Of a stretch of DNA of 64,000 bases, positions 23,858 to 52,900 are shown piece by piece. This stretch comes from Chrysiogenes arsenatis DSM 11915 (GTDB lineage: Bacteria > Chrysiogenota > Chrysiogenetes > Chrysiogenales > Chrysiogenaceae). Position 1 is the stretch's first letter; each line of letters starts with the position of its first letter. Where the stretch lies: positions 40,311 to 104,310 of the forward strand of contig NZ_AWNK01000004.1 in assembly GCF_000469585.1 (NCBI RefSeq), written 5' to 3'. The translations under genes and the position numbers were made by a program. A model generated the notes under the pieces. It did no database searches and was not told the origin of the DNA. It worked only from the letters and a program-made list of their open reading frames with translations.

Positions 23858-24491
23858 ATTTTTCCAAATAGCTGGCGATAGCTTTTTTAAGCCAGTCTAA
23901 CGTAATATCGTTGCTGATTAAAAAGAGGTATCCGCTTGCATTAAAGTGTTCGAGGTGAAAAACCGTCTTAAAATAAATCGCATACGAATTCTGCACTTCA
24001 AAAGCAGAATTCAGCGATGTGTGAATTTGATCTTTCACAAAAAAACGGGGTGGCGAATACGTCACAACATCATCCAGCAACTCAGCAATTTTACTGATAC
24101 ATGCCCCGATGACGATATTACTTACTTCAATCAATCCCTCTTTTTCAAGCACATCGACATCAGGATAATCTGCGATAATGGTGTTGCTGCTGTCAAATAA
24201 CCGCAGAAGCTTCTTCCCTTCGCCATGGGGAAAGAGAAGCAGGCTTGAGCCGCTAAACTTACCACTGAAAAACTGCGTAATCATACTCATATCATTGACA
24301 TCGGGTATTTCTTTGCGAATGCAGCGGAATACCTCTGCAAATGGGATGACCTGAATGACAGGCACCGTCAGCGTGACATGCTGATCAATAACATCTGAAA
24401 TTCCGGCAGCCGCTTGCCCAAAAGAGATATTCATAATTTCTTGCAGAACATCCCGCTCTATTTCATTTAAGTAGCTTTTCTCTGCGTCCAT
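23850..24491 (-). CDS. cheC: CheC-family CheY-P phosphatase
   Basis: Two copies of the CheC signature [D/S]-x3-E-x2-N-x22-P. The first is DVLQEIMN followed by 22 residues then P. The second is EVSN followed by 22 residues then P. 213 aa. Confidence 0.75.
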   Translation of the reverse strand: MDAEKSYLNEIERDVLQEIMNISFGQAAAGISDVIDQHVTLTVPVIQVIPFAEVFRCIRKEIPDVNDMSMITQFFSGKFSGSSLLLFPHGEGKKLLRLFDSSNTIIADYPDVDVLEKEGLIEVSNIVIGACISKIAELLDDVVTYSPPRFFVKDQIHTSLNSAFEVQNSYAIYFKTVFHLEHFNASGYLFLISNDITLDWLKKAIASYLEKYA

Positions 24492-33696: not shown

Positions 33697-34551
33697 TTAT
33701 TCCCGCAGGGATATTTCTTTGTCCCACTCCCAGTAAAACGTGAGGTAAGGTTCGTTTGGGCGCCTCCACCCGAGTGAGATATGGCCAAGCATGGCATCGG
33801 GAAATCTTGAGAGGATCTGGATCACCGATGCGCGGCGAGAAATACTCAAGATCTCAAAGCATTGATCCTGCACGCACGGTAAGATATCCCTAATGGCTAC
33901 GTTTAAATCATACACTCGCAAATCCACCCCTTGGCTCTGTGGCGGAGTGTTGACGTACAGAATGTCCAGTTTTTTTTCGCCATCCACAGTTGCGACACCA
34001 ATCCGATCAAGTAGGCTACCGAAGATCGGTTCAGTAACAACCTCAGGAAGCAGTAAGGGAATCGTGGCTATGGTAGCACCGGGAACCATGTGGTAAGAAG
34101 TCACGCGCTCAAGTTTCCCACTTCGAGCCCGCCATTTGTAGCCACGACACCACAATGCCGATGGTTGCCAATAAAGTTGTTCTCCAACTTGCGTGGACAA
34201 ATGAACGGGAAATTCAAGATAGAGCTTGATGACCTCTGGCGTCGCTGACGACACGTTTTCCGGAGAGACTACCGCCGATTCAATTGCCAGATAACAAAAA
34301 TTTGCACGATCCCAATCGGCAAGAATTGATTCAGATACTATGTTCGGAACACCGCCAATCTCCTGAAAATGGGAAAACAATTCCATAGGGTCGAGATTCT
34401 GTTTATCAAACCCAAAAAGCAATCTACTGCCATCAAAGCCATTTGGTGTAATTTGCAGCGAACGTTCCCACCCTACCACTCTTGAACCCAACCAATGAGC
34501 GATTTGATAATAAACATCAAGAGTCAGAAGCTTATTGGAGTGGTTACTCAT
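33697..34551 (-). CDS. Hypothetical protein, last gene of the export operon (no recognisable domain)
   Basis: 284-aa ORF overlapping the SecA-like gene by 8 nt. No TM helix or signal peptide is obvious and no motifs are recognised. Confidence 0.5.
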   Translation of the reverse strand: MSNHSNKLLTLDVYYQIAHWLGSRVVGWERSLQITPNGFDGSRLLFGFDKQNLDPMELFSHFQEIGGVPNIVSESILADWDRANFCYLAIESAVVSPENVSSATPEVIKLYLEFPVHLSTQVGEQLYWQPSALWCRGYKWRARSGKLERVTSYHMVPGATIATIPLLLPEVVTEPIFGSLLDRIGVATVDGEKKLDILYVNTPPQSQGVDLRVYDLNVAIRDILPCVQDQCFEILSISRRASVIQILSRFPDAMLGHISLGWRRPNEPYLTFYWEWDKEISLRE

Positions 34552-36502
34552 AACTGGTAAATGTCATCCTTTTTTGACTTTCGCGTGTTGCCGTGTTCAT
34601 AAATCGACGTAAGCGAAAGGCTTTTAACTCAGCTCGGTGCTGTGTAAGTCGAATCATTGTTGTCCATAATTTATTATGGGGCCAGTGTTCTGCCAAAGAA
34701 CACAGAACGCGCAAAACGCATTTTGGCAACACGGCTCGCATAATCCCATCCTCAAGCGAAACCAGTGGGTACGCTTCGCCCGGATTTCCCTGCCGCCCAG
34801 CGCGACCGAAAAGTTGCCAGTCAATGCGAGCCGACTCATGCGGCTCCATCATGATGACGCGTAACCCTCCTGCTGCCATTACTTCCCTCGAAAGCTTAAT
34901 GTCCGTTCCCCTTCCCGCCATGTTCGTCGCTATCGTGAGTTGCCCTTTCTCGCCTGCACGGGCAACAATATCGGCCTCTTCGGTGAGCTTTTTGGCGTTC
35001 AAGAGCTGATATTTTACCCTCTCCCGATCAAGCCGACCGGCAAGTTGTTCGCTATCTTCAATGGTACGTGTTCCTACCAGCACAGGAATCTCCCGCACAA
35101 GCAATTCCCGCAAAAGATTCAATAAACCAAGCTCTTTTTCCTGTTTCGTTACAAACAGCTGAAAAGGCTGCACGATCAGTTGCGATGGAAGTCGTGAAGG
35201 AATTCGGAGTGTGCGTATCCGATAGTTAAAAAACAGCTCATGAGCAATATTCTGCAGTGTGCCACTCGCACCCGTCAGGCGCACATAATGTTTAAAATAA
35301 TTCTGAAAACTCATCCGCGCTAACGTTTTATTCGGGTGAGTGAGTGGTACACCAGCGCGAGCCTCTACTGCTTGATGCAGGCCGTAGCTCCACGATCTAC
35401 CCGGCATAGGACGGCCAGTGCCTTCATCAACAATCACCACCTCGTCGTCAAGCACTACATAATGCTGATCCTGAAGAAAGTAATCACGCGCTAGCACAGC
35501 CTGCGTAAATAAATCATGGCGTCTATGTCGGCCTCGCCAAATAGGGGGAAGCTCTTGAGCCATCTTTTCCATTAACTGTTCACCATGTGTCGTCCAACGC
35601 ACATCTCGGTGCAGCGAACTACACTGATAATCTCGGGGCGACTGTAATCTATCGACCAGCGTGCGTGCGACAAGAATAGCTTCGTGTAGTACTGGATTAT
35701 GATCTGCTCCAGAAATAATCATCGGAGTAATGGCTTCATCAATCAAAATATTATCGGCTTCATCGACAATTGCGGTATGAATGCCGCGCATCAGTAATCG
35801 ATGTGCGGTTTGCCCTTGAAGCATACGCACACTCATGGTCAGAGGCGTCACGGAGCCGCCGAAAGTGATTTGATCGGTCAGATAGTCGGCTAAGAGCTGC
35901 TTGGCCGTTGAATACACAACATCGGCAAGATACTGCGTTGGCTTCTCTTCCTGAGTATGGGTTTGCAGCACCGTAGCAACGGAAACACTGCAAAATTCGT
36001 AGAGCGGTGCCAACTCAGTAGCGTCACGCTCGGCTAAGTAGTCATTGGCAGTAATGACGTGACAAGGTCGGTTGCTCCACCCGAAAAGAATAGCGAGTAA
36101 GCCAATCGTAAGAGTTTTCCCCTCCCCTGGTGCTAGCTGTACCAAATATCCATCAAACATGGCGAGAATGGCTGCCATTTGCACTTGATATGGTTCCATG
36201 CCCAGCAGTCGCACCGATGCAAGTTGAAGGAGAGCAAGTGTTTTATGCAATAACAACCGTTCTGCAGAGAGTTGACCGGCAAGCGCGTGCAAGCGCATTG
36301 CATTCAGCTGATGGATCAATGCTTCTGGAGTCAAATCAGCGAGAGCGCGATAGTGCCGACCAATACCATCTGCTTCTTGCAGATAGTCACTCACTAGTTT
36401 TTTTTCTCGCCAGCGATGCCGCACCAGATGCCATTTTACGATGCACCAATACGGCTCTTTCGGGAGTTTTTTTAACGATGGAAGTTGCAACGATGCGAGC
36501 AT
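34544..36502 (-). CDS. Truncated SecA-family ATPase (SecA DEAD motor, ~650 aa, lacks the C-terminal scaffold/wing/tail)
   Basis: Co-linear SecA motor motifs: ..LAPGEGKTLT.. (Walker A), ..HVITANDYLAERDA.., ..VDEADNILIDEAITPMIISG.., ..LTGASGTL.., ..VLVGTRTIEDSEQLAGRL.., ..LLNAKKLTEEADIVARAGEKGQLTIATNMAGRGTDIKL... The protein ends ~80 aa after the last motif. Confidence 0.8.
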   Translation of the reverse strand: MLASLQLPSLKKLPKEPYWCIVKWHLVRHRWREKKLVSDYLQEADGIGRHYRALADLTPEALIHQLNAMRLHALAGQLSAERLLLHKTLALLQLASVRLLGMEPYQVQMAAILAMFDGYLVQLAPGEGKTLTIGLLAILFGWSNRPCHVITANDYLAERDATELAPLYEFCSVSVATVLQTHTQEEKPTQYLADVVYSTAKQLLADYLTDQITFGGSVTPLTMSVRMLQGQTAHRLLMRGIHTAIVDEADNILIDEAITPMIISGADHNPVLHEAILVARTLVDRLQSPRDYQCSSLHRDVRWTTHGEQLMEKMAQELPPIWRGRHRRHDLFTQAVLARDYFLQDQHYVVLDDEVVIVDEGTGRPMPGRSWSYGLHQAVEARAGVPLTHPNKTLARMSFQNYFKHYVRLTGASGTLQNIAHELFFNYRIRTLRIPSRLPSQLIVQPFQLFVTKQEKELGLLNLLRELLVREIPVLVGTRTIEDSEQLAGRLDRERVKYQLLNAKKLTEEADIVARAGEKGQLTIATNMAGRGTDIKLSREVMAAGGLRVIMMEPHESARIDWQLFGRAGRQGNPGEAYPLVSLEDGIMRAVLPKCVLRVLCSLAEHWPHNKLWTTMIRLTQHRAELKAFRLRRFMNTATRESQKRMTFTSYE

Positions 36503-36504
36503 GC

Positions 36505-38652
36505 TTACTGGATCTGATAGCGTGATTGTAATAGCTGCCGCACTGCCAGAGCTATTTGCTCCAGAAGCGGTCTGGGCGACAATGCAATACGCATGACACC
36601 AGGAGCACCATCATAGAAAGCCGTTGGTGATTCTGAAAAACGCGCAATCACCTCAAAAAACGGCTCATCAGTTCGTAATCTCCCTTGAGCATCAGCTTGA
36701 GCAAAGAGCGTACCACCTCCTTGAAGTGCGAGTGCCGAAGAAGGGAGCTCGTGCTTCTGATACGGAATAAACTGCAGATCATGACTCTCCAGTGGCGAAG
36801 TAAACTGCCCAGGCAGACGGATTTCGGCACGTAGCAAGTTCGATCCGAAAAGATCTCCTGCCTGCTCTTGGGTAACAACACCGACAAACTGCTGCTTGCC
36901 CGGAGTAATCATTACCCCTAAACGCTCTCCACGCATAAAATGCGAATTGACCCGCGCCGGCATCACATCACTTACCCAGATCCCATCAGTCGGTGCCACC
37001 GTCTTGAGTCGATCAAGTCGTTTGTCAAGTTCATCCAGACGCCCCACCAGAAACGACTCGCGGTCATAGAGCGCTTTTAAATCACCCTGCTTACCATCCG
37101 TTGCTTTGCGGATAAGCCAACGAGTTTCCACCAATTGTTGCCCTGTCAGTTCATACTCCAGTTCTAATTCTGGATTGATAAACTCCATCAACACACTGCC
37201 TTGCTGCACGGTATCGCCAGAACGAACGACCAGCGCTGTCAAGGTTCCACCGGCTTCCGCATACAACGGCATCCGCTGCTCAGACAAAAGCACCCCCGGC
37301 GCAACAAGGGCATACGGCAGAGGAAATGTTGCCAATACCAGCAGAATGAGCAGCGGGGTAACGGCAGAAACAACGATGGCACGACGGCGATTCTGCCGTA
37401 ATTCGCTGCTTTTACGAAGATATTGCACGAGTTTCAACGTGGGGCCAATGAGCCACATGTAGCACATTGCGAGTAACATTAAAACACCGAGAAACAGTGA
37501 AAGGTCGGCCATATAAAGCAAAATCGCCACCATAACGAACAGGCGGTAACCAAAACTTGCGGCACCATACCCATAATACCAGTAACGTTCGTTACGGTTT
37601 TCCGCCGGCTCCTGCGCATCTTTGGTGCCAAGAAGTACTACGTTCGCAATATAATGCCACTGACGCCCCGCTTTCTGATAGAGATTCGGCAAATCAATCA
37701 GATCGGAGAGGACATAATAGGCATCAAATTTCAGCAACGGATTTCCATTAAAAACAAAACTCGAAATAGAACCAATAATCATGATGTTAAAAGCAAGACC
37801 ATTGACAAACCCGGGTGCTGTCAACCCCCAAACAATCGCCGCCAACGCCGCAAAAAACAACTCAACATACAGACCAGAGACTCCGACAAATGCGCGGTGC
37901 CACTTACTGCGCATTGACCATGACGAGCTCACATCAATGTAAGGAAGCGGAGCCAGCGCGATAAACATCACCCCAAGCGTATAGACATCACCACCAGAAC
38001 GGCGACATGCTATTGCATGCCCCATTTCATGAAGAAATTTCAAGAGAAACATGGCGACATAAAGCCACAAAAGGTTATCGACGGCTAAAATCCCTTGTGC
38101 CTGACTCGTAAACGATCCGAAATGGTCAATCACCGACTTCGCACCAAACAAAACCACAAGCAACCAACCAACAAAAGACCATCGCGAAAAAAAACGTTGC
38201 AGCCATCCGATATTGTTCTTCAGAAATTCATTCGGATTCCAAAGTGGAATTCTAAAATAGAGAAATGCCAGCAGGTGAGAAAGCTTTTCCTTGCGCCGCT
38301 GCTCCGCGTAGCGCTCGAAAATTGATTCGCTCTTGCCCTGTGAGCGGAAGAACAGAAGGCTCATCTGATGCAGTTGGGATAATAACATAATGACGGCATC
38401 TTGACTCGGTGCATCTTCGGGATACTCTTCCGTAAATGCTATCCAAAGCTCTTCAACCGTTCTTTCCGGAGTAAGGCGCGCAAGGAACAGATACGCCGGT
38501 TCCTGAACGCGGTAGTACTTCTCAGAACAACTATCTTGCAGCACATACCAGACCTGATCGCGATAGATCTGTTTATGAATGCGGATCGTCGGCAGTAAAC
38601 CAAGCCGCAGTGTCGCAACCTGATACCAAGATTCGCTGAATGTCGCAGACAA
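36505..38652 (-). CDS. Fusion of a site-2-protease-like M50 intramembrane metalloprotease and an HlyD-type periplasmic adaptor (MFP)
   Basis: ~170-aa cytoplasmic N-domain. Polytopic region with HExxH (..LHEMGHAIAC..) and a downstream NPLLKFD (third zinc ligand). A later TM helix and a ~300-aa C-terminal region with biotinyl/lipoyl-like and beta-barrel MFP character (..GTLTALVVRSGDTVQQGSVLMEF..). Confidence 0.75.
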   Translation of the reverse strand: MSATFSESWYQVATLRLGLLPTIRIHKQIYRDQVWYVLQDSCSEKYYRVQEPAYLFLARLTPERTVEELWIAFTEEYPEDAPSQDAVIMLLSQLHQMSLLFFRSQGKSESIFERYAEQRRKEKLSHLLAFLYFRIPLWNPNEFLKNNIGWLQRFFSRWSFVGWLLVVLFGAKSVIDHFGSFTSQAQGILAVDNLLWLYVAMFLLKFLHEMGHAIACRRSGGDVYTLGVMFIALAPLPYIDVSSSWSMRSKWHRAFVGVSGLYVELFFAALAAIVWGLTAPGFVNGLAFNIMIIGSISSFVFNGNPLLKFDAYYVLSDLIDLPNLYQKAGRQWHYIANVVLLGTKDAQEPAENRNERYWYYGYGAASFGYRLFVMVAILLYMADLSLFLGVLMLLAMCYMWLIGPTLKLVQYLRKSSELRQNRRRAIVVSAVTPLLILLVLATFPLPYALVAPGVLLSEQRMPLYAEAGGTLTALVVRSGDTVQQGSVLMEFINPELELEYELTGQQLVETRWLIRKATDGKQGDLKALYDRESFLVGRLDELDKRLDRLKTVAPTDGIWVSDVMPARVNSHFMRGERLGVMITPGKQQFVGVVTQEQAGDLFGSNLLRAEIRLPGQFTSPLESHDLQFIPYQKHELPSSALALQGGGTLFAQADAQGRLRTDEPFFEVIARFSESPTAFYDGAPGVMRIALSPRPLLEQIALAVRQLLQSRYQIQ

Positions 38653-38655
38653 TTC

Positions 38656-40536
38656 CTACCTCCAGAGCGCAAGACGGATACGATTCAGCGTCTTGTGTGT
38701 ATAGATCCAGAAGTACGACCGTGGTTGCACATGAATTTTTGCCACCCCAGTCATACCAGGGCGCCACCACGTTTCACCATCCTCTTCAAGTTGAGCAATC
38801 ACGGTAAACCGCGCCCCCTCCTGCGACTTCACCTCAGCCATTGGAATTACGCGACTGATTCGCAGGGGAATTTTCCGCCCTGGCTGGCTGACCAGCGCAA
38901 ATTCGCCAATACTCCCCTCGCGCACATGGTGAATGTCGTCATGCGCTACTTCAACTACCACATATACATCTTCGGTTTGTGCAATACGCAGCAGGGGTTG
39001 CCCTTTGGAAACAGGTGCTGAAATCAGCTCGCGCCGCTCCCCTTCGACCACTACCCCAGTAAAGGGAGCGTGCATATGTGCTTGCGAAAGCTGATAATTC
39101 ACCCGCTCCATACGGGCTTTCACCTGCTCAATCCGTGCCAAAGCAATCGCCAAGTCCACACTGGTAAACTCTGCCCGAGCCCGATCAGCTTCGGTTACGT
39201 TTCGCTGTAACTCCGCTTGGAGTTCGGCAAGTTGCATCAGCAAATCTTGCACATCAAGCGTCAGCAACGGATCACCTTCCACCACCTCGTCACCACTGGT
39301 GACATAGGCATCGATGATCACCCCCTCAAAAGGGGCCGTAATGAGCCGAGTATTGTCCGTAACAAACTGCCCAGTCCCTTCAACAGTATGCATGGTGGAG
39401 AATGTCAGCGAGCCAAACAACAGTAAAGATCCAGCCAGTACCAACGACTTAACCAGCAGATTTTCTGCCCCCGCAAGACGGCCAATTGTGCGCAGAGCAA
39501 CCGTCCGCAACCGATCGCGCCATTCGGCATCTTGCAAATACAATTGTTCCAGCCGCGGCATCACGGTTCGTGCCAGAAAGTGCACCGCCTCGCAAGGAAG
39601 TTCCGGCAAATCATCACGGTAGTTGACGAGTGTCAATGCGAACACGGTATGGCCGTGAGAGTTCACAAGCGGAAAAGTCATAATAGATCGTGCCGCAAGG
39701 TGGGTTTGTAGTTGTTGATGAGCAAGGGTAATTACCTTTCCATCCGAAGCACGGTGACTTGAATAATGAATGGCGGCAACCTGATCCACCGACTCCTCTA
39801 AAGCCGCTTCAAACAGTCTAACGGTATCGGTTTTTTGCTCAAAGCGCTCATAGTGGCTGATCCCCTTTACCCGTGTATACGCCCCCTCTTTCCAGCCCAG
39901 CACGACCTGATCAAAGGCGCTCTGGTAATTAACGATGCCATTGGCTAACGCATACACAGCCGCTTGAAAGTTTTCGGATTGATATATTTCGCTCAGCAAG
40001 TCGAGCAAGCTTGCGAGCATGTTTTCGTGCGCCGTTTTCCGCGCATCAACTGCTTTTGACTCTGTACCTAACAACGCTGACGTGTTCAAGACGGACTCAT
40101 CCTGCACAAAGTCGAGCATTAACTGGGCACGCACAAGAATGTCGTTCAAACGTGTTGCAGCATCACAATCAATCGCTAAAATCAAAAAATATGGGGTAGG
40201 ACACAACGCACGGAGCGCGACGAAGCCGATTGACCCATCGATATGGGGATGGGGTGGACGGTGGGCAAATCCACTGGCTTCGGCCCGCTGCAGAAAAAGG
40301 AAAAATTCCTGCGTGTCTAACAAAGGCTTTGACGGGCTTTTCTGTTCTAAATCGCTGGTAGCAACCAAAAGCAGTTGATGTTCCTGTACCAAAATGAGTT
40401 CCGCACTCGGCACACGGCATACGTTCTTGACGAGCACCAGATAATCTATCCACGATGCTTGACCTGCTTGAGACTGAGTGACCCGTACGTGGTATAATTC
40501 CTGTAATCGTTGGCGAAATGCTTCTTTAGAGGCCAT
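38656..40536 (-). CDS. HlyD-type periplasmic adaptor with a large (~370 aa) N-terminal cytoplasmic sensory-like domain (GAF-like; uncertain)
   Basis: Single TM helix (..LLVKSLVLAGSLLLFGSLTF..) followed by a coiled-coil and MFP lipoyl/beta-barrel segments (..APFEGVIIDAYVTSGDEVVEGDPLLTLD.., ..APFTGVVVEGE..). The N-terminal 370 aa are soluble and alpha/beta-like. Confidence 0.7.
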   Translation of the reverse strand: MASKEAFRQRLQELYHVRVTQSQAGQASWIDYLVLVKNVCRVPSAELILVQEHQLLLVATSDLEQKSPSKPLLDTQEFFLFLQRAEASGFAHRPPHPHIDGSIGFVALRALCPTPYFLILAIDCDAATRLNDILVRAQLMLDFVQDESVLNTSALLGTESKAVDARKTAHENMLASLLDLLSEIYQSENFQAAVYALANGIVNYQSAFDQVVLGWKEGAYTRVKGISHYERFEQKTDTVRLFEAALEESVDQVAAIHYSSHRASDGKVITLAHQQLQTHLAARSIMTFPLVNSHGHTVFALTLVNYRDDLPELPCEAVHFLARTVMPRLEQLYLQDAEWRDRLRTVALRTIGRLAGAENLLVKSLVLAGSLLLFGSLTFSTMHTVEGTGQFVTDNTRLITAPFEGVIIDAYVTSGDEVVEGDPLLTLDVQDLLMQLAELQAELQRNVTEADRARAEFTSVDLAIALARIEQVKARMERVNYQLSQAHMHAPFTGVVVEGERRELISAPVSKGQPLLRIAQTEDVYVVVEVAHDDIHHVREGSIGEFALVSQPGRKIPLRISRVIPMAEVKSQEGARFTVIAQLEEDGETWWRPGMTGVAKIHVQPRSYFWIYTHKTLNRIRLALWR

Positions 40537-40548
40537 AAAACCACACCA

Positions 40549-41433
40549 TCACAGCTGCACTCGCGCTTTTAATCCTGGCCGAAACCGATTATCCACGTTG
40601 CGATATTCAACCTTCACTTCGACTAATCCACTTGCCGGATCAGCTACTGGTGAGAGAAAAGAAATCGCCCCTTGTGCGCGCGTGGATTCCACTGCAAAAT
40701 CAACTTTTTGCCCTATCGTAAGCTTCGCTGCGATAGCACTCGGAATACTGATGCGGATGTAAATATACGAAGTATCAACCAGTTCGATGATCGGCTCACC
40801 CGCCTGAGCCCATTCCCCTTTTTTGAGGCGAATTTGGGTGATAAATCCTTTACTGGGCGCGAGTAGAGTCCGTTGGGCAAGGACTTGTCGGCCAATTTTA
40901 TAATCGTAGTCTTGTTTTTTTTCTTCTAACTCAAGCAGTGCAACTTCGCTCTCTGTTGTGACTCTATTGATGATCATTTGATTGAGCTCATCAAGACTGA
41001 TTGATCTACTTTCATGGTACAACTCAAGAGCGGATTTTACTTGCTCCACTTGCAGCAGTAACCGAGCGCGAGCCCCGTCCAATGCACTCTTGTCCCGCAT
41101 CAGCGTTTCAAGGCGCGACAGTTCAAGTTGCTCAATATGTTGCTCCAGCACCAAGAGCGGTGTTCCCTGATCGACGTAGGCTCCTTCTGCGATCTTGACT
41201 TCACTGACCACACCGCTAACCGCCATTGCGAGCAAGTAGCGCTCACGAGGGTACACCACACCTACCATCGCATCACTTATTGCAACCGTCTCATGTGGAC
41301 TCACCTCTGGACTAAATGAACGGAAATCGCCACGCGAACGAGTGCTTGGAGCCTCGCTCGCTATAGCGAATACATTCAAGGACAAAAACAGCAGGAAAAA
41401 AATACAGTTGGTCAATCGCATAGTGCCCTTCAA
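40549..41433 (-). CDS. HlyD/RND-type periplasmic adaptor subunit (membrane fusion protein), secreted or lipid-anchored
   Basis: N-terminal signal/anchor (..CIFFLLFLSLNVFAIA..), lipoyl motif (..ISDAMVGVVYPRERYLL.., ..APSKGFITQIRLKKGEWAQAGEPIIEL..), and an alpha-hairpin. Confidence 0.8.
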   Translation of the reverse strand: MKGTMRLTNCIFFLLFLSLNVFAIASEAPSTRSRGDFRSFSPEVSPHETVAISDAMVGVVYPRERYLLAMAVSGVVSEVKIAEGAYVDQGTPLLVLEQHIEQLELSRLETLMRDKSALDGARARLLLQVEQVKSALELYHESRSISLDELNQMIINRVTTESEVALLELEEKKQDYDYKIGRQVLAQRTLLAPSKGFITQIRLKKGEWAQAGEPIIELVDTSYIYIRISIPSAIAAKLTIGQKVDFAVESTRAQGAISFLSPVADPASGLVEVKVEYRNVDNRFRPGLKARVQL

Positions 41434-41437
41434 AATT

Positions 41438-43060
41438 CTACAGTGCTTCTACGTCAAACTGAATGCCGAGTTCCTGCAACAGGCTACCATCCGAAAGCTG
41501 AAGACTGATTTTTGCCAGTTCATATTGAATCTCGGCATCCACCATACGGATTATACCCACGTTGAGATTATCTTCGCGCTCAATCATATCAATGTAGCGC
41601 GCTACACCGCGGTCAAACCGTTCCCGCTCAATTTCAAGCAGTTCCTTGAGGACAGTGGTATTCTGCCGATGACGATCCAACTCTTGATACGCTTGATCTA
41701 CCTGTGCAAGCCGCAACTGAAGTTGATTTGAAAGGTCTACCTTTACCGCTTCAGCCTGATATTGATTTTGGGTAATTCGTGAAAGCGCTATGGATTCTTT
41801 CGAACGCGCACTTTGATTACCACCTAAAGGGATGGAAAACTCAACACCAGCATACCAGTTGGGATAACGCTCCGAAAATGCTTCTTCAAAAGTTCTGCCG
41901 TAGCGCTCATCATACCGAAGGCTACTTTGGCCATAGCCCGCAACAAAATCGAGTTTTGGACGCAACTCATCGCGGGCTATCGCCAGAGAATGTTCTTCCA
42001 GCGCAATACGTTCTATTGCAATTCCGTAATTCGGCCAAACACTGAGAACCTGCTCAAAGTAAGTCTGAAAACTTTCCGGCTGTTGCCACGCGGTAGTGTC
42101 AGGCTCTGAAGTCGTCTGAAAAACAACGTGCTGATATTCATTGGCTGAGAGGTTGAGAACCCCCTTAATCGCACTTTTCACTTGTTCATACCCGCGCTCT
42201 ACGACAAATGATTCTGCCTGACGAAGTAGAAGGGTAGAACGGGCTTCGGTCATAGCAGTTTGCGGTAAGCGCCCAGCTTGCACGCGCCGCTCAATATCGG
42301 TGAGGATATTATTCGCATTTTTCAATGAATCTGCATTCAAAGCTTTCATCTGTTCGGCACGGTACAGCCGCCAGTAGAGGCTGAGCGCATCGTATGACTT
42401 ACTCAGAATCTGTTGCTGAGTTTCCTGTTTGCGGATTTCAATCTGTTTTTCTGATTGTGCGATCCGATTCTCAATTTGAGCCGCCCCAAATCCGCGCAAA
42501 ATTGGTTGACGGATACGGAAATTCAGCGAACCGACATTGTCGTTAATCCCAGTAGGATCATTCACCGAGCTCGTATTATTATAGCGTTTATGCCCTTCAT
42601 ATTCGACAGAGACCTCAGCCCCAGAAACGACTAACGTGCGCACGCCAAACTGAAAACGACCATTGCGGTCTATCGTCGTGTCATTAGGGGCTAACGGATT
42701 ATTTTCGGTTTTTCGCTCATCAGCACGGAGTATTGAAAAAAATTCCATCTCGTATGCGGCGCGATCATGCTGTAGTTGCGCCTCAGCAATTTTTTTCTGC
42801 TCTGCACTTACGAGCACCTCAGGATTGCGTAGGAGCACAAGGTGCACGAAAGACTCTTTATTTAGAGCCACAGCACCTTGTTGTATTTGCGTCAGCACTT
42901 GTTCGTGGCGATTCATGTCACCATGAGAAGGTTGACTCTCGGCCCACGCGGGAATGGCCAGACACGCTGCCGAAACCGCTAAACCTGCAAAAACTTTTTG
43001 GGGGCAAGAAAGTATATTCCGTATCATCGTCAACCTCTTTGTATCGGCATAGATGGCCAT
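41438..43060 (-). CDS. TolC-like outer-membrane efflux factor
   Basis: Signal peptide. 540 aa with the two-fold repeated helical/beta structure and coiled-coil-rich Q/L/E/R repeats typical of outer-membrane factors. 4 nt upstream of the MFP gene. Confidence 0.85.
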   Translation of the reverse strand: MAIYADTKRLTMIRNILSCPQKVFAGLAVSAACLAIPAWAESQPSHGDMNRHEQVLTQIQQGAVALNKESFVHLVLLRNPEVLVSAEQKKIAEAQLQHDRAAYEMEFFSILRADERKTENNPLAPNDTTIDRNGRFQFGVRTLVVSGAEVSVEYEGHKRYNNTSSVNDPTGINDNVGSLNFRIRQPILRGFGAAQIENRIAQSEKQIEIRKQETQQQILSKSYDALSLYWRLYRAEQMKALNADSLKNANNILTDIERRVQAGRLPQTAMTEARSTLLLRQAESFVVERGYEQVKSAIKGVLNLSANEYQHVVFQTTSEPDTTAWQQPESFQTYFEQVLSVWPNYGIAIERIALEEHSLAIARDELRPKLDFVAGYGQSSLRYDERYGRTFEEAFSERYPNWYAGVEFSIPLGGNQSARSKESIALSRITQNQYQAEAVKVDLSNQLQLRLAQVDQAYQELDRHRQNTTVLKELLEIERERFDRGVARYIDMIEREDNLNVGIIRMVDAEIQYELAKISLQLSDGSLLQELGIQFDVEAL

Positions 43061-43128: not shown

Positions 43129-43875
43129 TTATGACTCAGCGATTACAGGCTCTGTTTCACCTGGCTTCAGGCTCGTCTGCCCATCTTTTAGCATCGCCAA
43201 GCGTTCAAGTTGGCTGAGTGAGGTTAAATGAGCAAAGATAGGCGCAAAGTAGCGCTTTTCGCGTATTTCAAGAAAGCGCTTATCGGAAAGATTATTCAAA
43301 CGCTCCTCATTGATCACATAACAACCAGTTACGTTGCGAATCTGCCCACCGTAGCGCACACGCATACTGAGCGGAGTAAAGAGATTATTTTCAGCCATGA
43401 ACGTACAGAATGCCTTCGTGAAGATCTCCATTTGTTGCATTTCGCCAAGGTATTTTTTTACATTGTCGATGATCACGGTTGGCTCACCTTTTTCAAACAA
43501 CGCTTGGCCATCTTTTGTCCCAACACAGTCCGCATCTTCATCAATGCAAACTGTAAATTGATCAGCTTGATCACTTTTAGCGAGGGCAAAAGGGTAACGG
43601 CGGATAATGGCTGGCACATATGAAGCCTTCCAACTCCCATCTTCAGCGATAAATAGATTTTCTCCGGCATCAAGGCCAAACATCACAACAGGCTTAAATT
43701 CATCCTGCTCTTTGTCTTCAAGGAAAACAATCGGATACACCGATGCCGCCCGAGCAAATTCATGCACCATGAGTGACGCAATATGAAACTTACTGGCAAA
43801 GGCAAAGCTGCTAATAGGTGTCACTTTTGTCTTCGCATGTTTGTCCTTGTTAAGCGGAACCAATTTTTTAAACAT
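43129..43875 (-). CDS. SapC-family protein
   Basis: 248 aa, co-linear with SapC-family (PF07277-type) proteins (..FARAASVYPIVF.., ..AIIRRYPFAL..). GGAGG RBS. 26 nt downstream of the giant gene. Confidence 0.7.
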   Translation of the reverse strand: MFKKLVPLNKDKHAKTKVTPISSFAFASKFHIASLMVHEFARAASVYPIVFLEDKEQDEFKPVVMFGLDAGENLFIAEDGSWKASYVPAIIRRYPFALAKSDQADQFTVCIDEDADCVGTKDGQALFEKGEPTVIIDNVKKYLGEMQQMEIFTKAFCTFMAENNLFTPLSMRVRYGGQIRNVTGCYVINEERLNNLSDKRFLEIREKRYFAPIFAHLTSLSQLERLAMLKDGQTSLKPGETEPVIAES

Positions 43876-43901: not shown

Positions 43902-46900
43902 TTAAAACTCAAATTCTTCCTCTGTGTAGAAGTCGAAAATGAAACTATCTTGAATACTTGAGCCAAAGCTCGAAAACTGGAAGTCTCCATAGAAGTTAAC
44001 CACCTTGCTGGAAGTATACGGCATTTGCAGGTTGAAACCTGGCTCTAAGCCTACTGGCGCTTGCTGCATAAATCCAAAGTCGAAGTTGATGCCACCAAAC
44101 ATTCCGTCAGAGATGCCAAGATCGCTCAAGTTCATAAAGGAACTCATGGTGGCTTTCTGTAAACGTGACAAGCTTGCATGATCAAGGAATGTTGTCGCAT
44201 TGTGCAAACGCAGAGCATCCATATTTTCTATCGATAATTCTTGGATTGTTTTACTTGCACTAGCCGAAGCGCCTCCCCCTTGAGATCCACTGAAGCGCAC
44301 TGACTCAAAAGCACTCAATTTGAATTCCGCTCTCACTGGACCATGAACAACGGCGTGATTACCCACAGAAATCACGTACACTCGCTGATCAATACCACGG
44401 ATACCAAATATATAGCTATCACCAGTAGCATCATCAACAACACTATACAGTTGCCCAGGACCGACAATGCCATGAATCTGCGCTGCATCTATCTTCAGTA
44501 AGTCAGCGCGGATAGCTTCAAGTTGAGGTATCAGGCTTGCTACTGGCTGATCAATAAAAAACGGTATCGTCTTGATAAACACCTGATTGGCAACAATATT
44601 GGCTGCTTGTGTCCCGAGCGAACTCTGGATACGATATTCCGAACTTTCAAGCCACACATCACCACCCGTCGCAACGTGAGCAATCAACAAAATACTATCG
44701 GTCGAGGTAAAGTAAATATCGCCTCGCTCTGATAATGTCTGTGCACTTGCTTTCATCTCTATGACCGGAGCCGTGTAACGAACTTCCCCCTGCCCCGTCA
44801 GCGACAGAGTGGCCTCTTGCACAATACTTTTTCCAGATGAAAGGACAACGGTACTATCGACGCCTGAGATATTCATAGCAAGAATCAGTGAACCATGTAC
44901 GGCATGGAGTTCGATAGTGCCATGACTACTCGTTCCATTCAGCATTGAATCCGTAATTTCTTCAACAAGAGCTTCATTGGTCATCCGCAGCACCGTTAGC
45001 TCACCGAACTGGTCATTATCACCAATGCGCAAATCTTCTTGGGCGGCAAGGAAGATACCACCATGACCAATATCCGCACTCAGTGAATCGACTTCAACCA
45101 CAAAAGGACGCCCTGATTCACCAAGTTGACTACCAGTAACCCGCAGATACTTTGCTAGGATATTCACGGTACTTGAAGGAGCACTGGTTATGACGCCACC
45201 AACCAGACTGACCGCAGTTGGAGTTGTTACATGAGAGATGGACATACTGTGAGTTGCTTCGATGCGAATATTGTTCTGAGTTTGCAATAGAGCTTTAGCT
45301 GTCATGGAGACTGATTGGGCACTAATGTCGAGCGTCGCATCTCCTGTAATATGAACCAGACTGTCGATAAACTCCACATTGCCGTTCCGCGCTAACAACG
45401 ACACATTACCACTGCTGGCAATGTCGCTCTGCACGATAATGGATCCATTTTCAACTTCTATTTGTAAGTGCTCGCCAGAGAAATTCAACGCACCATCAAG
45501 TATAAAGTTTCGCTGCTCACCGGAAACGCCTGCCTGCACCATTATGACAGTTACGGTGTCGGTTGCCAATTCAAGCTCAGACAAACGCAGATCACCACTA
45601 GTGGTAATGGTATTTAACCCCGCTATGGTGAATACCCCCTGCAGGGTAGTAGTCCCGCCACTGTGAGCACTTAGATCGCCACCAACCGTGAGGTTTCCTT
45701 CAATTGTCAAAGTTTCATCGGTTTTGATAGTCGTGTCACCGGTGATAGTGATTGCATCGCTGAGTATTACTGCTCCGGTTCCGGTGATAGCAAGGTCGCC
45801 GCCAATCTCTAGTGTGCCTTCGACGGTAGTTGCTCCGCCGACTGTCAGGGTAACATTGGCGCTGGTGAAAGTTCCTTCTATCAGCAGGGCATCGGTTGAT
45901 GTTAGTTCAGTACTTCCTTCAACGATAAAGATTCCGTCTAGGATGCTCTCGCCTGCACTGCTTGTGGTAAGGGCGCCACCAACAGTGAAGTTTCCTTCAA
46001 GTGTCAGGTCAGCATCGGTCTCGATAGTCGCGTCACCAATAATAGTGATTGTATCGTTGAGCATCACCGCTCCGGTTCCGGTGATAGCAAGGTCGCCGCC
46101 AATATCTAGTGTGCCTTCGACGGTAGTTGCTCCGCCGACTGTCAGGGTAATGTTGGCGCTGGTGAAAGTTCCTTCTATCAGCAGGGCACCGGTTGATGTT
46201 AGTTCAGTACTTCCTTCAACGATAAAGGTTCCATCTAGGATGCTCTTGCCAACACTGCTTGTGATGAGGGCGCCACCAACAGTGAAGTTTCCTTCAATCG
46301 TCAGGTCGGCATCGGTCTCGATAGTCGCGTCACCGCTAATGGTGATTGCATCGCTGAGCATCACCGCTCCAGTTCCGGTGATAGCAAGGTCGCCGCCAAT
46401 ATCGAGCGTACCTTCGACTGTAGTTGCTCCACCGACTGTCAGGGTGACGTTGGCACCGCTGAAGGTTCCGGTAATCGATAAGTCTGCTTTCGCATCGATA
46501 GTCGTGTCACCGCTAATGGTGATTGCATCGCTGAGTATTACTGCTCCGGTTCCAATGATAGCAAGGCTGCCTGCAACATCCAGCTCACCTTCGATAGTGG
46601 TTGTTCCGCCGATTGTCAGGGTGACATTGGCGCTGGTGAAAGTTCCTTCTATCAGCAGGGCACCGGTTGATGTTAGTTCAGTACTTCCGTCAACGATAAA
46701 GGTTCCATCTAGGATGCTCTTGCCAACACTGCTTGTGATGAGGGCGCCACCAACAGTGAAGTTTCCTTCAAGTGTCAGGTCGGCATCAGTCTCGATAGTC
46801 GCGTCACCGCTAATGGTGATTGCATCGCTGAGCATCACCGCTCCGGTTCCGGTGATAGCAAGGTCGCCGCCAATATCTAGTGTGCCTTCGACGGTAGTTG

Positions 46901-49900
46901 CTCCGCCGACTGTCAGGGTAACGTTGGCGCTGGTGAAAGTTCCTTCTATCAGCAGGGCACCGGTTGATGTTAGTTCAGTACTTCCGTCAACGATAAAGGT
47001 TCCGTCTAGGATGCTCTTGCCAACACTGCTTGTGATGAGGGCGCCACCAACAGTGAAGGTTCCGGTAATCGATAAGTCTGCTTTCGCATCAATGTTGATG
47101 TCACCGTCAATGGCTATTGCATTACTGAGTATCACCGCTCCGGTTCCAGTGATATCAAAGTTGCCAGCAACATCCAGCTCACCTTCAATAGTGGTTGCTC
47201 CACCAACTGTCAGGGTGACGTTGGCACCGCTGAAGGTTCCAGTAATCGATAAGTCTGCTTTCGCATCGATGTTGGTGTCACCGTCAATGGCGATTGCATT
47301 ACTGAGTATCACCGCTCCGGTTCCAGTGATGCCAAGGTTGCCAGCAACATCCAGCTCACCTTCGATAGTGGTTGTTCCGCCGACTGTCAGGGTGACCTTG
47401 GCACCGCTGAAGGTTCCGGTAATCGATAAGTCTACTTTCGCATCGATGTTGGTGTCTCCGTCAATGGCGATTGCATTACTGAGTATCACTGCTCCGGTTC
47501 CAGTGATATCAAAGTTGCCAGCAACATCCAGCTCACCTTCAATGGTAGTTGTTCCTCCGACAGTCATGGTGACGTTGGCACCGTTGAAATCTCCGTCAAT
47601 CGTCAGGGCTGCATCAGTATCGATAGTCGTGTCACCGGTGATAGTGATCGAATCGCTGAGCATTACCGCTCCAGTTCCGGTGATGCCAAGGTTGCCGCTA
47701 ATATCCAATGTGCCAGCGACTGCGGTTGTTCCACCGACTGCCAAGGTGACGTTGGCGCCAGTAAAGGTTCCGATAATCGCCAAGCCTGCTTTCGCATCGA
47801 TGGTCGTGTCACCGGTGATAGTGATCATATCGCTGAGCGTTACCGCTCCGGTTCCGGTGATGCCAAGGTTGCCGCTAATATCCAGTGTACCAGCGACTGC
47901 GGTTGTTCCACCGACTGTCAGGGTGACATTGGCACCGCTGAAGGTTCCGATAATCGCCAAGCCTGCTTTCGCATCGATAGTCGTGTCACCGCTAATGGTG
48001 ATTGCATCGCTGAGCGTTACCGCTCCGGTTCCGGTGATAGCAAGGTTGCCTGCAACATCCAGCTCACCTTCAATAGTGGTTGCTCCACCGACTGTCAGGG
48101 TGACGGCGGCGCCGGTAAAGTCTCCTTCTATCAGCAGGGCACCGGTTGATGTTAGTTCAGTACTTCCTTCAACGATAAAGGTTCCGTCTAGGATGCTCTT
48201 GCCAACACTGCTTGTGATGAGGGCGCCACCAACAGTGAAGTTTCCTTCAAGTGTCAGGTCGGCATCGGTCTCGATAGTCGCGTCACCGCTAATGGTGATT
48301 GTATCGCTGAGCATCGCCGCTCCGGTTCCGGTGATAGCAAGGTCGCCGCCAATATCGAGCGTACCTTCGACGGTAGTTGTTCCTCCGACTGTCATGGTGA
48401 TGTTGACACCAGTGAAATCTCCATCTATCGTCAAGTCTGCTTTCGCATCGATGTTGGTGTTGCCGTCAATGGTGATTGCATTGCTAAGTGCAACGTTTCC
48501 GGTTCCGGTGATGCCAAGGTCGCCGGTACTCACCAGCCTACCTTCGACGTTAGTTGCGCCTCCGACAGTCATGGTGACACCACCGCCGGTGTATCTCCCT
48601 TTAAGTGTTAAATCATTTGTGGCAGAAAGGTTGCTACTTCCTGTTGTGCTAAAAGTACCGCGCAAGATACTTGCACCATCGCTGTTCGCGACGAAGTCGC
48701 CAGCAACGGTTAACTCGCCTATGATTGTCAGGTCTGCTTTCGAATCGATGGTCGTGTCACTGCGCAGCTTGAAATCACCAATAAGAACCATATTGCCCTG
48801 ACTGTTGATTGTACTGGTGCCGCTTACCGTGAGTGACAGCGCACTTGCCTGATTGCTGGTGAGCGCTCCAAGGGTATCAATGTGCAACGTTCCGGCAACT
48901 GCATTTCTACCAAAGAGGTACGTGTCGCCATCTATAAAGAGCGTCGCATCACCGTTGAGCGTAGTGACGTTCAGGCTCGCAATGCGCACCTCGCTCTGAG
49001 TATTTGCGCCAAGGGAAATATCGCCATTGGTGGCGCGCATGGTGGTTTTGCCACCAAGTCGCAATACATCATCGGTATCATTGGCCAGTGCTATTGATTG
49101 GGCGGTGAATGAGTTATCGCCCGTCACGATAAGCTGTGTACTGGCGCCAGCGGTAATACTCTCTGGCGTAGTCACATTAAGGCGTCCCGCCGTATTGCTG
49201 CCTACAAACGTCACGGCATTATCAAGTTCCAATACCACTGCGCCAGCACTGTTGACCGTCAAGGTTCCGGCAGAGAAAAAGTCACCAACAGCATTGCCAA
49301 GACGAATTTCCCCGCCAGAGAATGCGGCATGACCTGTAATCGTAAGTTGTGCTTGCGTCAGGTTGGAAAGCACATTGACCGCTTGCGCACGAAGATCTCC
49401 ACCGACAGTGATATTCGATAGGGTTAAATTGTTGGCAGCCTTCAAATGGACATTTTTGGCTTGATGCACCGTCACGGCACCACCAAAGTTATGACTATTG
49501 TCAAATACAATATCCGATGCCGCATCAGCCGTGAGCTTTGTGATTCCCGTGACCGACAACTTGCCCGTCGCGCCATCATTAAGAGAACCCGATACCACCA
49601 GTTCTAGTGTTTTAGCAGTGCTTTCCCCCGCTAACACCATATCGCCATCGTGTGTTATGCGCACATTGCCATTGCTCACAAAGGTCAGAGTGCCAGTAGT
49701 GAAGGAATCGGTATCGATAGTAACGGCACTGCCTGAGAAACGGGAATTCTCTTCAACCGCAATCTGCGCCCCCTCTAGAGTACTCAGCTCATGAACCGCT
49801 GTCGCAACAAGATTGCCGGTGACGGTCAGATTTGCCAGTGTCAAGGTATTCACATCGCTGAGTGTTACATTCCGAGCGCCGAGCACGGTCACTGCGCCAC

Positions 49901-52900
49901 CAAAGTTGTGCGCGTTATCCAAAATGATATCGGCAGTCTCCGTTGCCTGCAGTGTTGTGGAGCCTGTAACCGTCAGGGTAGCATCAGTTCTGTTGGTAAC
50001 GGTGCCTTGTGCCGTCAAAGAAAGATTACCGCCGGCAAAGCTTGCACCGGCTAAGGTGAGCGGTGCGCTTTGGGTAATCACAACATTGCCAGTGGTACTG
50101 AATTGGAGTGCACCAAACGTAACATTTGATTCCGTGCCAATCACAATATCCGAACCGTCGCCAACCAGCAACGCTACCACACCAGCGACATCAATAGTCA
50201 CGTTAGCTTCGGTTTCAATACTTCCATCCGTTTCTAGGATAAGATCATTCGTCACATTCACAGCACCAAGATGAATAGACTGGGTATTTTTTAACGCCAC
50301 ATCATACGCATTGGTTATATGAATCGCACCACCCAGACTATGATTATTGTCAAGGTGGATAGCTTTTTCGTCTGCCACACGAAGTAATGTAGCGTTGATA
50401 ACGTGAAGCACACCGGTATCACCATCCGTGATATTGCCCGTCGCATGTAACGTCAGTTGCTGAGTAGAACTCGCTTGCAACAGGAGTAGATCACCCGTGT
50501 GAGAGATCTCAACCGCACCCGTCGTCGTAAATTGCAGCGAGCCAAAACGTGCCGTTACCGGCTCATCAATCGTAATATCTGCCCCACTGCCCGCCGTGAA
50601 AGAGGCGTGACCAAGTACGGTAATAATTGTTTCATTGCGTGTACCGATCGCACCATCCACTGTCGTCAGCACCAGTGACCCGGCTGTATTATTACCTGTC
50701 ATGATGGCATCAGCACCAGCCGCTACGTTTACAATAACCTCGCCCTCACTGGAAAACCGCATGGTTTCGGTGCTAAAATTATTCTCAATACCCAAAGTAA
50801 TGCTGGCAGCGGTAACATCTGTCAATCCACCAACTTCAATGGTATCCACTTGGCTTACGTGCCCGCCAGCATGAACTTTCAAATCACTATTGCTAGTAAT
50901 TGCGCCTAGCTTTACGTCATCAATATCAGCAATCGAAATGGCATGCTCGCCATCATTCAAAATCAATACAACGCCAGTAAAGTTATTTGTACTATTAGTT
51001 AAAGCAATCTCACCCGCCTGAGTGGTAAACGTTACCAAACCAGCATTGAGAGCTTGTACCAATGCGCCCGTTTGCGTTATGGCACCGGTGGCCGCAATGG
51101 TTAACGACCCACTCCCCACACTTGATGTCCCCAACTCCAGTGCTCCATCCTGCGTCAGCGTAACCGCATAGTCACCAGAGTTATGTAAATGCACCGTACT
51201 CGCGAACTGATTCGAAGTATCATCAAGTGTTATAACCCCAGCACCCGCGCTCAGGTGTGCCACTCCACCCACCGTAATGGCGCCAGACTGCACAATTCCT
51301 TGACCAGCTACGCGCAAGTCACCACGTATCGATGAGACACCCAATTCAAGTTGCTCATTTGTTGCTACCGTGACATTCGCACCTATCAACGCCACCGCAC
51401 CAACAAAGCGGTTTTGCGCATCAGTCAGCGTGATGTCAAATCGTTCATCACCACTTGCGGCAGTGATGCGACTCTCACCACTAATCACCATAACCCCTGC
51501 TTGCGAAATCACACCATGAGCATAAATATCCATATCACCTGTTATCGTAAGCTCTCCAAGTTCCAGCGCACGGTTGTTCACAATGTTAGCGCTCGCTGCC
51601 ACAAGGGACACATTACCCGAAAACTCGTTTGCTAGATTCTCAAGTACAACCGACCCCGTTGCATGGAGTGCCATATCACCACTGACGTCTAACGCGCCAG
51701 ATTGTGTAATATTTCCTGCTGTCACAACGGTGAAGTCGCCACTTATGGTTGATGCACTCAGTTGAGTGTTCAACATATTGTGCACGGTTACATTGTGCGC
51801 ATTAGCAAACGTCACAGAACCGGCCAGGCGATTATTTTCATTTTCCAGAAGAACATTCGATCCCGCCGTGACCGTGAGTAGCGTCGTACCACCCACCTCT
51901 AGCCAAGCCGCAGTATTTGCTAAAATTCCACCAACCGTTGACGAGAGAGCGACACCTCCTGTCACCACACTCTGCCCCGTGAGGGTGATCGCCGAACCCG
52001 TATCGCAAAGCGTAACGTCCGTTGCCTTCAATTGCAGTAATCCGGACGTGAACCCATCGCTATCATCAATTCCCAGTGTAATATCAGTTGTGGCCGTCAA
52101 GTCAGCAAGCCCCGCCACACTAATAGCCGTTCCGGTAGCCTGTATAATCGCACCAGCAGTCGCATCGAGTGTGAGCGAGCCACTGAGCGTCACATTCGCC
52201 AGCGAGACTGACTGATCCACGAGAGATGCATTTTTGCCACGCAAGGCCACTGAGCCAGTAAAGTTATTGCCTACATGAGTTAAGGTAATATCATAATCGG
52301 TTATGCCATCAAGACTACGAGCCTCTATCTCACTCCAACCGGTAACAGTAAGTGAACCACTTTGAGTAATATCGCCCGCCGCACTTATATCGAGATCTCC
52401 ACCAACCTGACTTTCAAGCAGTGTCAACGCCTGTTGATTCTGCAACGTTACATTTCCGCTGACATCAAGCTGTAAACTATCCGTTGCCAGTGTTGTCCCT
52501 GAAGCCTGTGCCACATCACCAGTGGCTAGAATAGTTAGGTTTCCATCAACTACGGTATTGCCGAGTGTAAGCCCGTGCGTCGTAATCAGGCTCAGATTGC
52601 TGGCAGAAGTCGCGACAGCTTTCAGAGTAAGCGTGGTGCCATACACGGTAGTGTCCGTATGTAACATTGCAGCCGCATCCAGCGACGCGCCCACAGTAAC
52701 CACACCACTAGCCGTTTCGTTGCCCTGCCATTCACCTCCGGCCTTTTCAAGATGACCGAAAATGAACTGGCTAAAGCCATGAGAATTTGCCAGCATCGAA
52801 TTGCTGATATTCAGCGCATCGCCAGCACTTACGCCAATATTCACGTTGCGCTCAGCGCTATACGCTCCGATGATCAACTCGGAACCATCACTTCCGGTGA

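Follow-up and report, generated by a model that had tools for sequence, protein, structure and literature searches.

An inner-membrane periplasmic adaptor with two predicted GAF domains in a TolC-linked operon of Chrysiogenes arsenatis that contains no ABC transporter gene

What does a periplasmic adaptor do with several hundred soluble residues ahead of its membrane anchor? This question is raised by an open reading frame (ORF) at 38656..40536 on the minus strand of a 64,000-nucleotide stretch of the Chrysiogenes arsenatis DSM 11915 genome (contig NZ_AWNK01000004.1, positions 40,311 to 104,310). The whole stretch is referred to here as the window, and all coordinates are window positions. The ORF encodes 626 amino acids (aa) from ATG to stop codon, and the product is 100% identical to the C. 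arsenatis NCBI protein named 'efflux RND transporter periplasmic adaptor subunit'. By its domain content it is a membrane fusion protein (MFP), i.e., a periplasmic adaptor, and the region preceding its transmembrane helix is predicted to form two GAF domains. We consider this tandem GAF region most likely to be a cytoplasmic coupling or gating module of an export machine. The parts of the protein are as follows:

38656..40536, minus strand: whole ORF, 626 aa, comprising the predicted domains GAF-A and GAF-B, the transmembrane helix, a MacA-like membrane-fusion domain and a conserved C-terminal helix
40102..40536, minus strand: predicted GAF-A, residues ~1-145 (AlphaFold2 secondary structure, Foldseek, conservation)
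40042..40101, minus strand: inter-domain linker, residues ~146-165, variable and of low confidence (model confidence, conservation)
39529..40041, minus strand: predicted GAF-B, residues ~166-336 (conservation, fold, Pfam GAF/GAF_2 matches in homologues)
39466..39528, minus strand: juxtamembrane Arg-rich helix, residues 337-357 (DSSP, sequence)
39400..39465, minus strand: single transmembrane helix, residues ~358-379, with K363 (hydropathy, conservation)
38716..39399, minus strand: periplasmic adaptor part with lipoyl/barrel-sandwich, alpha-hairpin 430-484, beta-barrel and WWRPGMxG motif at 590-597 (Pfam, NCBIfam, Foldseek, conservation)
38656..38715, minus strand: C-terminal amphipathic helix 608-625 and stop codon (AlphaFold2 model, conservation)

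Hydropathy analysis revealed a single transmembrane segment at residues 359-379, with about 358 soluble residues ahead of it, close to the figure of about 370 given in the original prediction for this locus. The start codon is backed by homologues that align from residue 1, so the long N-terminal region is no start-codon artefact. The N-terminus carries no signal peptide, and the Arg-rich stretch WRDRLRTVALRTIGR, which directly precedes the transmembrane helix, fits a topology with the N-terminal region inside the cell. The original prediction contrasted this region with the few cytoplasmic residues of other MFPs; the long soluble region is real, but the contrast was overstated, as the classical HlyD has a functional cytoplasmic part of about 60 aa. 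Residues 103-122, which have marginal hydropathy, were considered as a second transmembrane helix and rejected because they form a buried, high-confidence beta-hairpin within GAF-A.

The structure of the full-length adaptor was predicted with AlphaFold2 from a 48-sequence alignment (predicted local distance difference test score, pLDDT, 89.1), and that of residues 1-350 from a 22-sequence alignment (pLDDT 86.6). Both models contain two domains (residues ~1-145 and 166-336), each with the element order alpha-alpha-beta-beta-alpha-beta-beta-beta-alpha, separated by a linker with pLDDT <50 at residues 148-162 and a mean conservation of 0.13. A Foldseek search of the PDB using the N-domain model returned 349 matches at an expectation value (E) <=1e-3. 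The top 50 were all GAF-containing structures (probability 1.0, E 6e-9 to 5e-7), among them the tandem GAF domains of CyaB2 (1ykd, E 6e-9), PDE6, PDE2A and PDE5 and the PAS-GAF-PHY modules of phytochromes. The alignments cover both GAF domains, with an identity of about 10%. When the Pfam families PF01590 (GAF) and PF13185 (GAF_2) were considered, 6 of 22 N-domains of the family matched Pfam GAF, and the homologues P0014, P0062, P0064 and P0065 scored 28-39 bits against a cut-off of 22.4 in the region equivalent to GAF-B. The models and matches indicate that the N-terminal region of the adaptor consists of two GAF-fold domains. The tandem GAF-like folds of the original prediction are thus borne out by modelling, Foldseek and the Pfam matches of homologues, and the predicted structure is not an extended coiled coil. 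A profile of the 22 N-domains found nothing in the PDB but a spurious glyoxalase match (E 0.29), and the GAF-B region of P0062 gave no GAF match in a sequence comparison with solved structures. GAF-A and GAF-B aligned in register with hhalign yet insignificantly (probability 5%), which does not support an internal duplication.

The two domains differ strongly in conservation, which was calculated for 182 full-length representatives, one per 50%-identity cluster, as the frequency of the commonest residue in each column. GAF-A has a mean column conservation of 0.33, with only L17, R18 and W29 reaching >=85%, and is degenerate; it would be a structural or dimerisation unit. GAF-B contains the near-invariant residues S227 (100%), N199 (99%), E248 (98%), H228, F232, E243, E247, D251, Q252 and H273 (85-94% each), together with G214, W215 and L329; several of them lie in the motifs ISHxxRFExK and EAALEExxDQ. 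The AlphaFold2 model places the conserved polar residues in the loop between beta2 and alpha3, along one side of alpha3 and at the beginning of alpha4; in canonical GAF domains, these elements form the walls of the ligand pocket. These residues give GAF-B a near-invariant, polar putative binding site.

Toward the membrane, the last helix of GAF-B (312-336), the juxtamembrane helix (339-355) and the transmembrane helix (360-378) are nearly unbroken according to DSSP on the AlphaFold2 model. This predicted near-continuous helix from GAF-B to the membrane resembles the signalling helices of sensor proteins. Beyond the membrane, residues 385-594 match the Pfam families HlyD_D23 (6.8e-18), HlyD_3 (3.5e-14) and Biotin_lipoyl_2, the first two over their cut-offs. 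The NCBIfam model TIGR01730 gave a score of 79.7, which does not reach its cut-off of 94.9, and TIGR01843 (type_I_hlyD) gave 40.8, far under its cut-off of 208. The model of this part contains a beta-barrel and the alpha-hairpin 430-484, with about 27 residues per helix, and its closest structures in Foldseek are MacA, followed by Spr0693, EmrA and MexA (E 1e-14 to 1e-12). K363 within the transmembrane helix is conserved in 97% of the 182 representatives, and the WWRPGMxG motif (590-597) and the C-terminal helix (W610, H614, R621, W625) are among the best-conserved parts of the adaptor. K363, the WWRPGMxG motif and the C-terminal amphipathic helix may be contacts to the M50-like membrane protein encoded by the next gene.

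The adaptor gene is part of a tightly packed minus-strand operon, in which neighbouring genes are separated by gaps of 2-12 nucleotides (nt) or overlap. Upstream of it lie, in order, the genes for a giant protein, a SapC-family protein, a TolC-family protein and a short MFP with a signal peptide; downstream lie those for an M50-like/HlyD fusion, a SecA-like ATPase and a protein of 284 aa:

43902..63995, minus strand: giant beta-helical protein, >=6697 aa, the presumed substrate
43129..43875, minus strand: SapC-family protein, 248 aa, which accompanies the module in proteobacterial loci
41438..43060, minus strand: TolC-family outer membrane factor (OEP), 540 aa, operon partner
40549..41433, minus strand: short periplasmic MFP, 294 aa, with signal peptide, operon partner
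36505..38652, minus strand: M50-like/HlyD fusion, 715 aa; from N- to C-terminus, a weak region resembling PqqD and the recognition element (RRE) of ribosomally synthesised and post-translationally modified peptide (RiPP) systems, a polytopic M50-like metalloprotease and a HlyD-like periplasmic domain
34544..36502, minus strand: SecA-like ATPase, 652 aa, with SecA_DEAD, PPXD and NBD2 domains
33697..34551, minus strand: protein of 284 aa, the last operon gene, overlapping the SecA-like gene by 8 nt

A TolC-family partner for the adaptor is therefore encoded in the same operon. However, the operon contains no gene for an ATP-binding cassette (ABC), resistance-nodulation-division (RND) or major facilitator superfamily (MFS) transporter, and ABC genes occur in the window only at 364-2105, 30 kb away, and are of the ABC-2 type. 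This lack of a partner transporter gene of the ABC, RND or MFS class in the operon holds across 160 related loci as well. The original prediction missed both this absence and the presence of the M50-like/HlyD and SecA-like pair. In the M50-like protein, which has about six transmembrane segments, the HEMGH and NPLLKFD motifs are intact. Its PqqD/RRE-like N-terminal region is weak (E 0.003), and a match to the daptide RiPP protease family is sub-threshold (6.8e-45). These sequence features hint at leader or signal recognition and cargo cleavage. The SecA-like ATPase has intact Walker A (GEGKT) and DEAD motifs and contains neither the scaffold/wing domain (SecA_SW) nor a transmembrane segment. 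The 284-aa protein has no Pfam or NCBIfam match.

To define the surroundings of this protein family, an N-domain profile was searched against a representative library of 1.84 billion proteins, which gave 2812 proteins at E <=1e-3, 1816 at <=1e-10 and 393 at <=1e-30 (counted as 50%-identity family clusters). Nearly all of the top 150 library matches are 600-645 aa long, with the N-domain at residues 1 to ~340, and this uniformity indicates a fixed architecture. Two sets of loci were compared, namely 80 genome loci anchored on the GAF motif and 80 metagenome loci anchored on the M50-like protein, the latter chosen against ascertainment bias. The first set comes from Gamma- and Betaproteobacteria, Verrucomicrobiota, Planctomycetota, Terriglobia, Spirochaetota, Omnitrophota, Nitrospirota and Desulfobacterota. 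Carriers of the module include Methylobacterium extorquens AM1 (META1p2399-2402), Thiomicrospira cyclica and isolates of Spiribacter and Marinomonas. M50-HlyD was found in 72-74 of the 80 GAF-anchored loci, and a SecA-like gene in 58 of the 63 with enough flanking sequence. Conversely, the presence of the N-domain in orthologous clusters had been set beforehand as a test, and it was found in 61 of the 63 M50-anchored loci having >=2.2 kb upstream of the M50 gene; both exceptions are also without a SecA-like gene. An OEP/TolC gene was present in 49 and 48 of the 80 loci of the two sets, respectively, many flanks being truncated. The usual gene order is TolC, short MFP, GAF-MFP, M50-HlyD and SecA-like. 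Several betaproteobacterial loci, mostly from Burkholderiales (L020, L021, L025, L027, L028, L066, L088 and L120), have the permuted order TolC, M50-HlyD, SecA-like, short MFP and GAF-MFP. The permuted genes are retained as a set, showing that the five genes travel as a unit. The GAF N-domain, M50-HlyD, the SecA-like ATPase, the second MFP and TolC thus constitute an obligate module.

Two loci of the metagenome Ga0272440 (L117 and L128) encode M50-HlyD homologues, with no GAF-MFP or SecA-like gene in several kb of flanking sequence. These homologues may belong to a sub-family that stands alone or to a split system.

To identify further neighbours, we clustered every ORF of the present window and of 165 fetched loci (166 in total). 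The recurrent families outside the core are SapC (28 loci), two giant-protein families (23 and 13), an Lcl_C lipoprotein (18) and a 7TMR-DISM histidine kinase (10); homologues of the 284-aa protein occur in 6 loci, and those of L006 and L085, for instance, follow the SecA-like gene. The recurring 7TMR-DISM kinase suggests two-component transcriptional control rather than control by second-messenger enzymes. Examples of the kinase and lipoprotein neighbours are found at L005:839-2836 (with a response regulator), L156:594-2618 and L027:1563-2963.

Giant ORFs adjoin the module in many loci. In the window, the giant ORF reaches within 5 nt of the edge and has no upstream stop codon, so its N-terminus is probably cut by the window edge. 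The encoded protein is rich in Gly, Thr and Ala (12% Gly, 12% Thr) and contains no Cys. Its last 1199 aa have weak DUF5649 and haemagglutinin-repeat matches and no RTX match in Pfam. The C-terminal region is homologous to that of giant ORFs upstream of SapC in L001, L006, L007, L010 and L012, and the extreme C-terminal tail (...QPxFNLxxP..S.VVN.YGDFQF.S.G....F.YDFYxEEEFEF) is clearly common to those of L006, L007 and L010. This shared tail may be a secretion signal.

From these results we infer the gating role of the tandem GAF region, the direction of signalling and the identity of the cargo. The adaptor would be the inner-membrane-anchored MFP of a conserved TolC-dependent export machine that works without an ABC transporter, and the adjacent giant beta-helical protein would be its likely cargo here. 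A binding event at GAF-B would be passed through the near-continuous helix and the transmembrane helix to the periplasmic adaptor part, where it would license the assembly or opening of the adaptor-TolC conduit. Such logic would be an enlarged counterpart of the short cytoplasmic N-domain of HlyD in type I secretion. Candidate binders of GAF-B are the SecA-like motor, the RRE-like N-domain of the M50-like protein, the conserved C-terminal tail of the substrate, and a small molecule or ion. We give this explanation in full, with an ABC-less exporter and gating through GAF-B, about an even chance of being correct. The signal-gated export of the original prediction survives in so far as the polar site and the helix leading to the membrane are compatible with inside-out signalling; its link to cyclic di-GMP (c-di-GMP) or cyclic mononucleotides (cNMP) does not.

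Several points weigh against this explanation. The TM-scores to tandem-GAF structures are only about 0.3, with a root-mean-square deviation of 17-20 Å, because the inter-domain orientation differs. The N-terminal region of the adaptor itself matches no Pfam family, even when E values up to 10 are allowed. Polar residues with an invariance of nearly 100% from phylum to phylum are more often a feature of small-molecule, metal or catalytic sites than of protein interfaces, and this weakens the version with a protein partner. The site is, on the other hand, acidic (E243, E247, E248, D251), which speaks against anionic nucleotides other than in metal-bridged form. Fold, conservation and neighbourhood analyses identified no ligand or partner of GAF-B, and our literature search found no experimental study of this protein family or of any component of the machine.

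A wider reading would make the module a distinct, unnamed double-membrane secretion machine. Here a SecA-type motor and the M50-like protein would replace the ABC transporter and feed giant beta-helical proteins to a conduit of three adaptors and TolC, and the tandem GAF region would be an allosteric inside-out gate, which either a small-molecule signal or the conserved C-terminal tail of the substrate would open. We offer this wider reading only tentatively and regard it as rather doubtful in its entirety.

The alternative that survives best concerns the nature of the signal. GAF-B might respond to a different small molecule or to an ion, for example a metabolite, a metal or a nucleotide-Mg complex, as a reporter of the state of the cell, and thereby gate the exporter allosterically. 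Many phyla conserve the polar and charged residues almost absolutely, as is typical for sites that bind a ligand or a metal, the fold is that of a GAF domain, and the helical connection to the transmembrane helix is like the signalling helices of sensors. However, the analysis points to no specific ligand, the related loci have no conserved gene nearby that would make or sense one, and the co-conserved protein partners account for the conservation equally well. The extreme invariance favours a small ligand or metal; a protein is favoured by the co-conserved partners and by the lack of any linked gene for the metabolism of a ligand. We consider the protein-partner and the small-molecule or ion classes about equally probable as binders of GAF-B; sensing of cell state in the form just described is a possible but not a probable explanation.

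Less probable still is that the tandem GAF region is a passive scaffold, which oligomerises the adaptor, tethers the SecA-like ATPase to the membrane, or both, without any switching. The SecA-like protein, having neither scaffold/wing domain nor transmembrane segment, would need a dock at the membrane, the GAF-MFP and SecA-like genes co-occur in >90% of loci, GAF-A is degenerate, and tandem GAF domains commonly dimerise. However, the invariant polar set of GAF-B is stronger than a purely structural domain would need, and the fact that every lineage has kept both domains suggests a role beyond tethering. We therefore think it unlikely that the region is merely a scaffold.

The original prediction tied the adaptor to c-di-GMP or cNMP, with GAF-B as the receptor and the display of the giant adhesin following the second-messenger state in a LapD-like manner. 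The fold is closest to the cNMP-binding tandem GAF domains of CyaB2 and PDE2/5/6, the invariant site lies in pocket-forming elements, and the four GGDEF/EAL genes that had been noted in the same 64-kb window are indeed present (8316-9968, 10374-12278, 17420-18658 and 22892-23857). However, these genes lie 10-25 kb from the end of the operon, in chemotaxis and two-component operons, with pnp, gyrB and the genes of a umuC-like polymerase, a band-7 protein and glycosyltransferases in between. Among the related loci, GGDEF/EAL genes were found within ~8-10 kb in only 1 of 80 and 3 of 80 loci of the two sets, i.e., near 4 of 160, and the neighbours in the 166 loci include no recurrent family of nucleotide cyclases or c-di-GMP enzymes. 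The NKFDE signature (N-K/R ... F-x3-D-E), which marks the cNMP-binding GAF subfamily of PDE2/5/6/10/11 and CyaB1/2, is absent from the adaptor: N199 is followed by G200, and F232 by E-Q-K-T236-D237 (F-x3-T-D). No candidate NKFDE motif was seen in GAF-A by sequence inspection either. The GAF-B site is rich in acidic residues and His, whereas c-di-GMP sites are usually rich in Arg, and to our knowledge no GAF domain has been established as a c-di-GMP receptor. A c-di-GMP or cNMP receptor is therefore the least probable of these explanations, and we consider it unlikely.

One of the four genes, the PAS-GGDEF gene at 22892-23857, sits between a CheC/CheX-like gene (23850-24491) and cheA (21210-22895), all on the minus strand at 21210-24491. 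This arrangement suggests that the encoded diguanylate cyclase is linked to chemotaxis and has no relation to the export operon.

If gating through GAF-B holds true, the adaptor would be the control point of a widespread envelope-spanning exporter, present in at least eight phyla, that seems to export some of the largest proteins of bacteria with no ABC transporter involved. The adaptor would also illustrate how SecA-type motors can work outside SecYEG and how a periplasmic adaptor can come under the control of a sensor domain in the cytoplasm. The invariant site (S227, H228, E248, H273 and others) offers direct targets for mutation and ligand screening. The present finding is mainly of confirmatory value; of greater interest is the export system in its entirety.

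The family was already known in silico. Kamneva, Poudel and Ward (2015, PLoS One, PMC4452313) described a 'secondary SecA_DEAD' locus related to type I secretion systems, with GAF+HlyD, Peptidase_M50-like+HlyD, SecA_DEAD without C-terminal domains, HlyD/biotin-lipoyl and often OEP proteins. They proposed that SecA_DEAD supplies the ATPase activity and that the M50-like protein is a possible membrane pore. A 'regulatory and sensory role' was suggested for GAF/HlyD and termed unclear, and the role of the locus was called 'completely unknown'. All five components are matched by the present, tightly packed operon. Whereas that study detected one GAF domain by weak Pfam matches, with no structure, the adaptor described here has a predicted tandem GAF region with a defined invariant GAF-B site. 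Giant substrates and SapC are not mentioned in that study; here the module is connected both with giant beta-helical proteins encoded next to it and with SapC, and the phyletic range is wider, Chrysiogenota being a phylum that was not listed before. The accessible part of a 2021 Chem Rev review of tripartite pumps and type I secretion does not mention the system. A 2026 Chlorochromatium preprint mentions SapC and TolC beside giant proteins, and a term search of that preprint found no discussion of this machinery.

Compared with known systems, LapD/LapG-LapA and PelD share the concept of an inner-membrane protein whose cytoplasmic sensory domain controls a large extracellular product. However, the present operon encodes no receptor with GGDEF, EAL or HAMP domains and no LapG-type protease, and PelD binds c-di-GMP at a degenerate GGDEF domain, not at a GAF domain. 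The analogy to LapD/LapG drawn in the original prediction was therefore rejected: the operon contains neither LapD nor LapG, and GGDEF/EAL genes are as rare near the related loci as given above. HlyD of the Escherichia coli haemolysin system has the same topology as the adaptor, with a cytoplasmic N-domain, one transmembrane helix and a periplasmic lipoyl/hairpin/barrel adaptor part that engages TolC, and its cytoplasmic N-domain takes part in substrate recognition and in substrate-triggered recruitment of TolC. The cytoplasmic part of HlyD is not a GAF domain, and its partner is the ABC transporter HlyB, which is missing here; a classical HlyB-HlyD-TolC system was rejected for this reason. 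Among known structures, those of MacA from MacAB-TolC match the periplasmic part best (9qgy_G, 3fpp and 5nik_D, E ~1e-14). MacA also resembles the adaptor in its N-terminal transmembrane anchor and hairpin length, but its cytoplasmic tail is short, its partner is the ABC transporter MacB and the sequence identity is ~18-19%. CyaB2 and PDE2/5/6 are like the adaptor in having two GAF domains, which in these enzymes are joined by long helices that carry allosteric signals to a C-terminal output; in the present protein, that output would be a transmembrane adaptor and not an enzyme.

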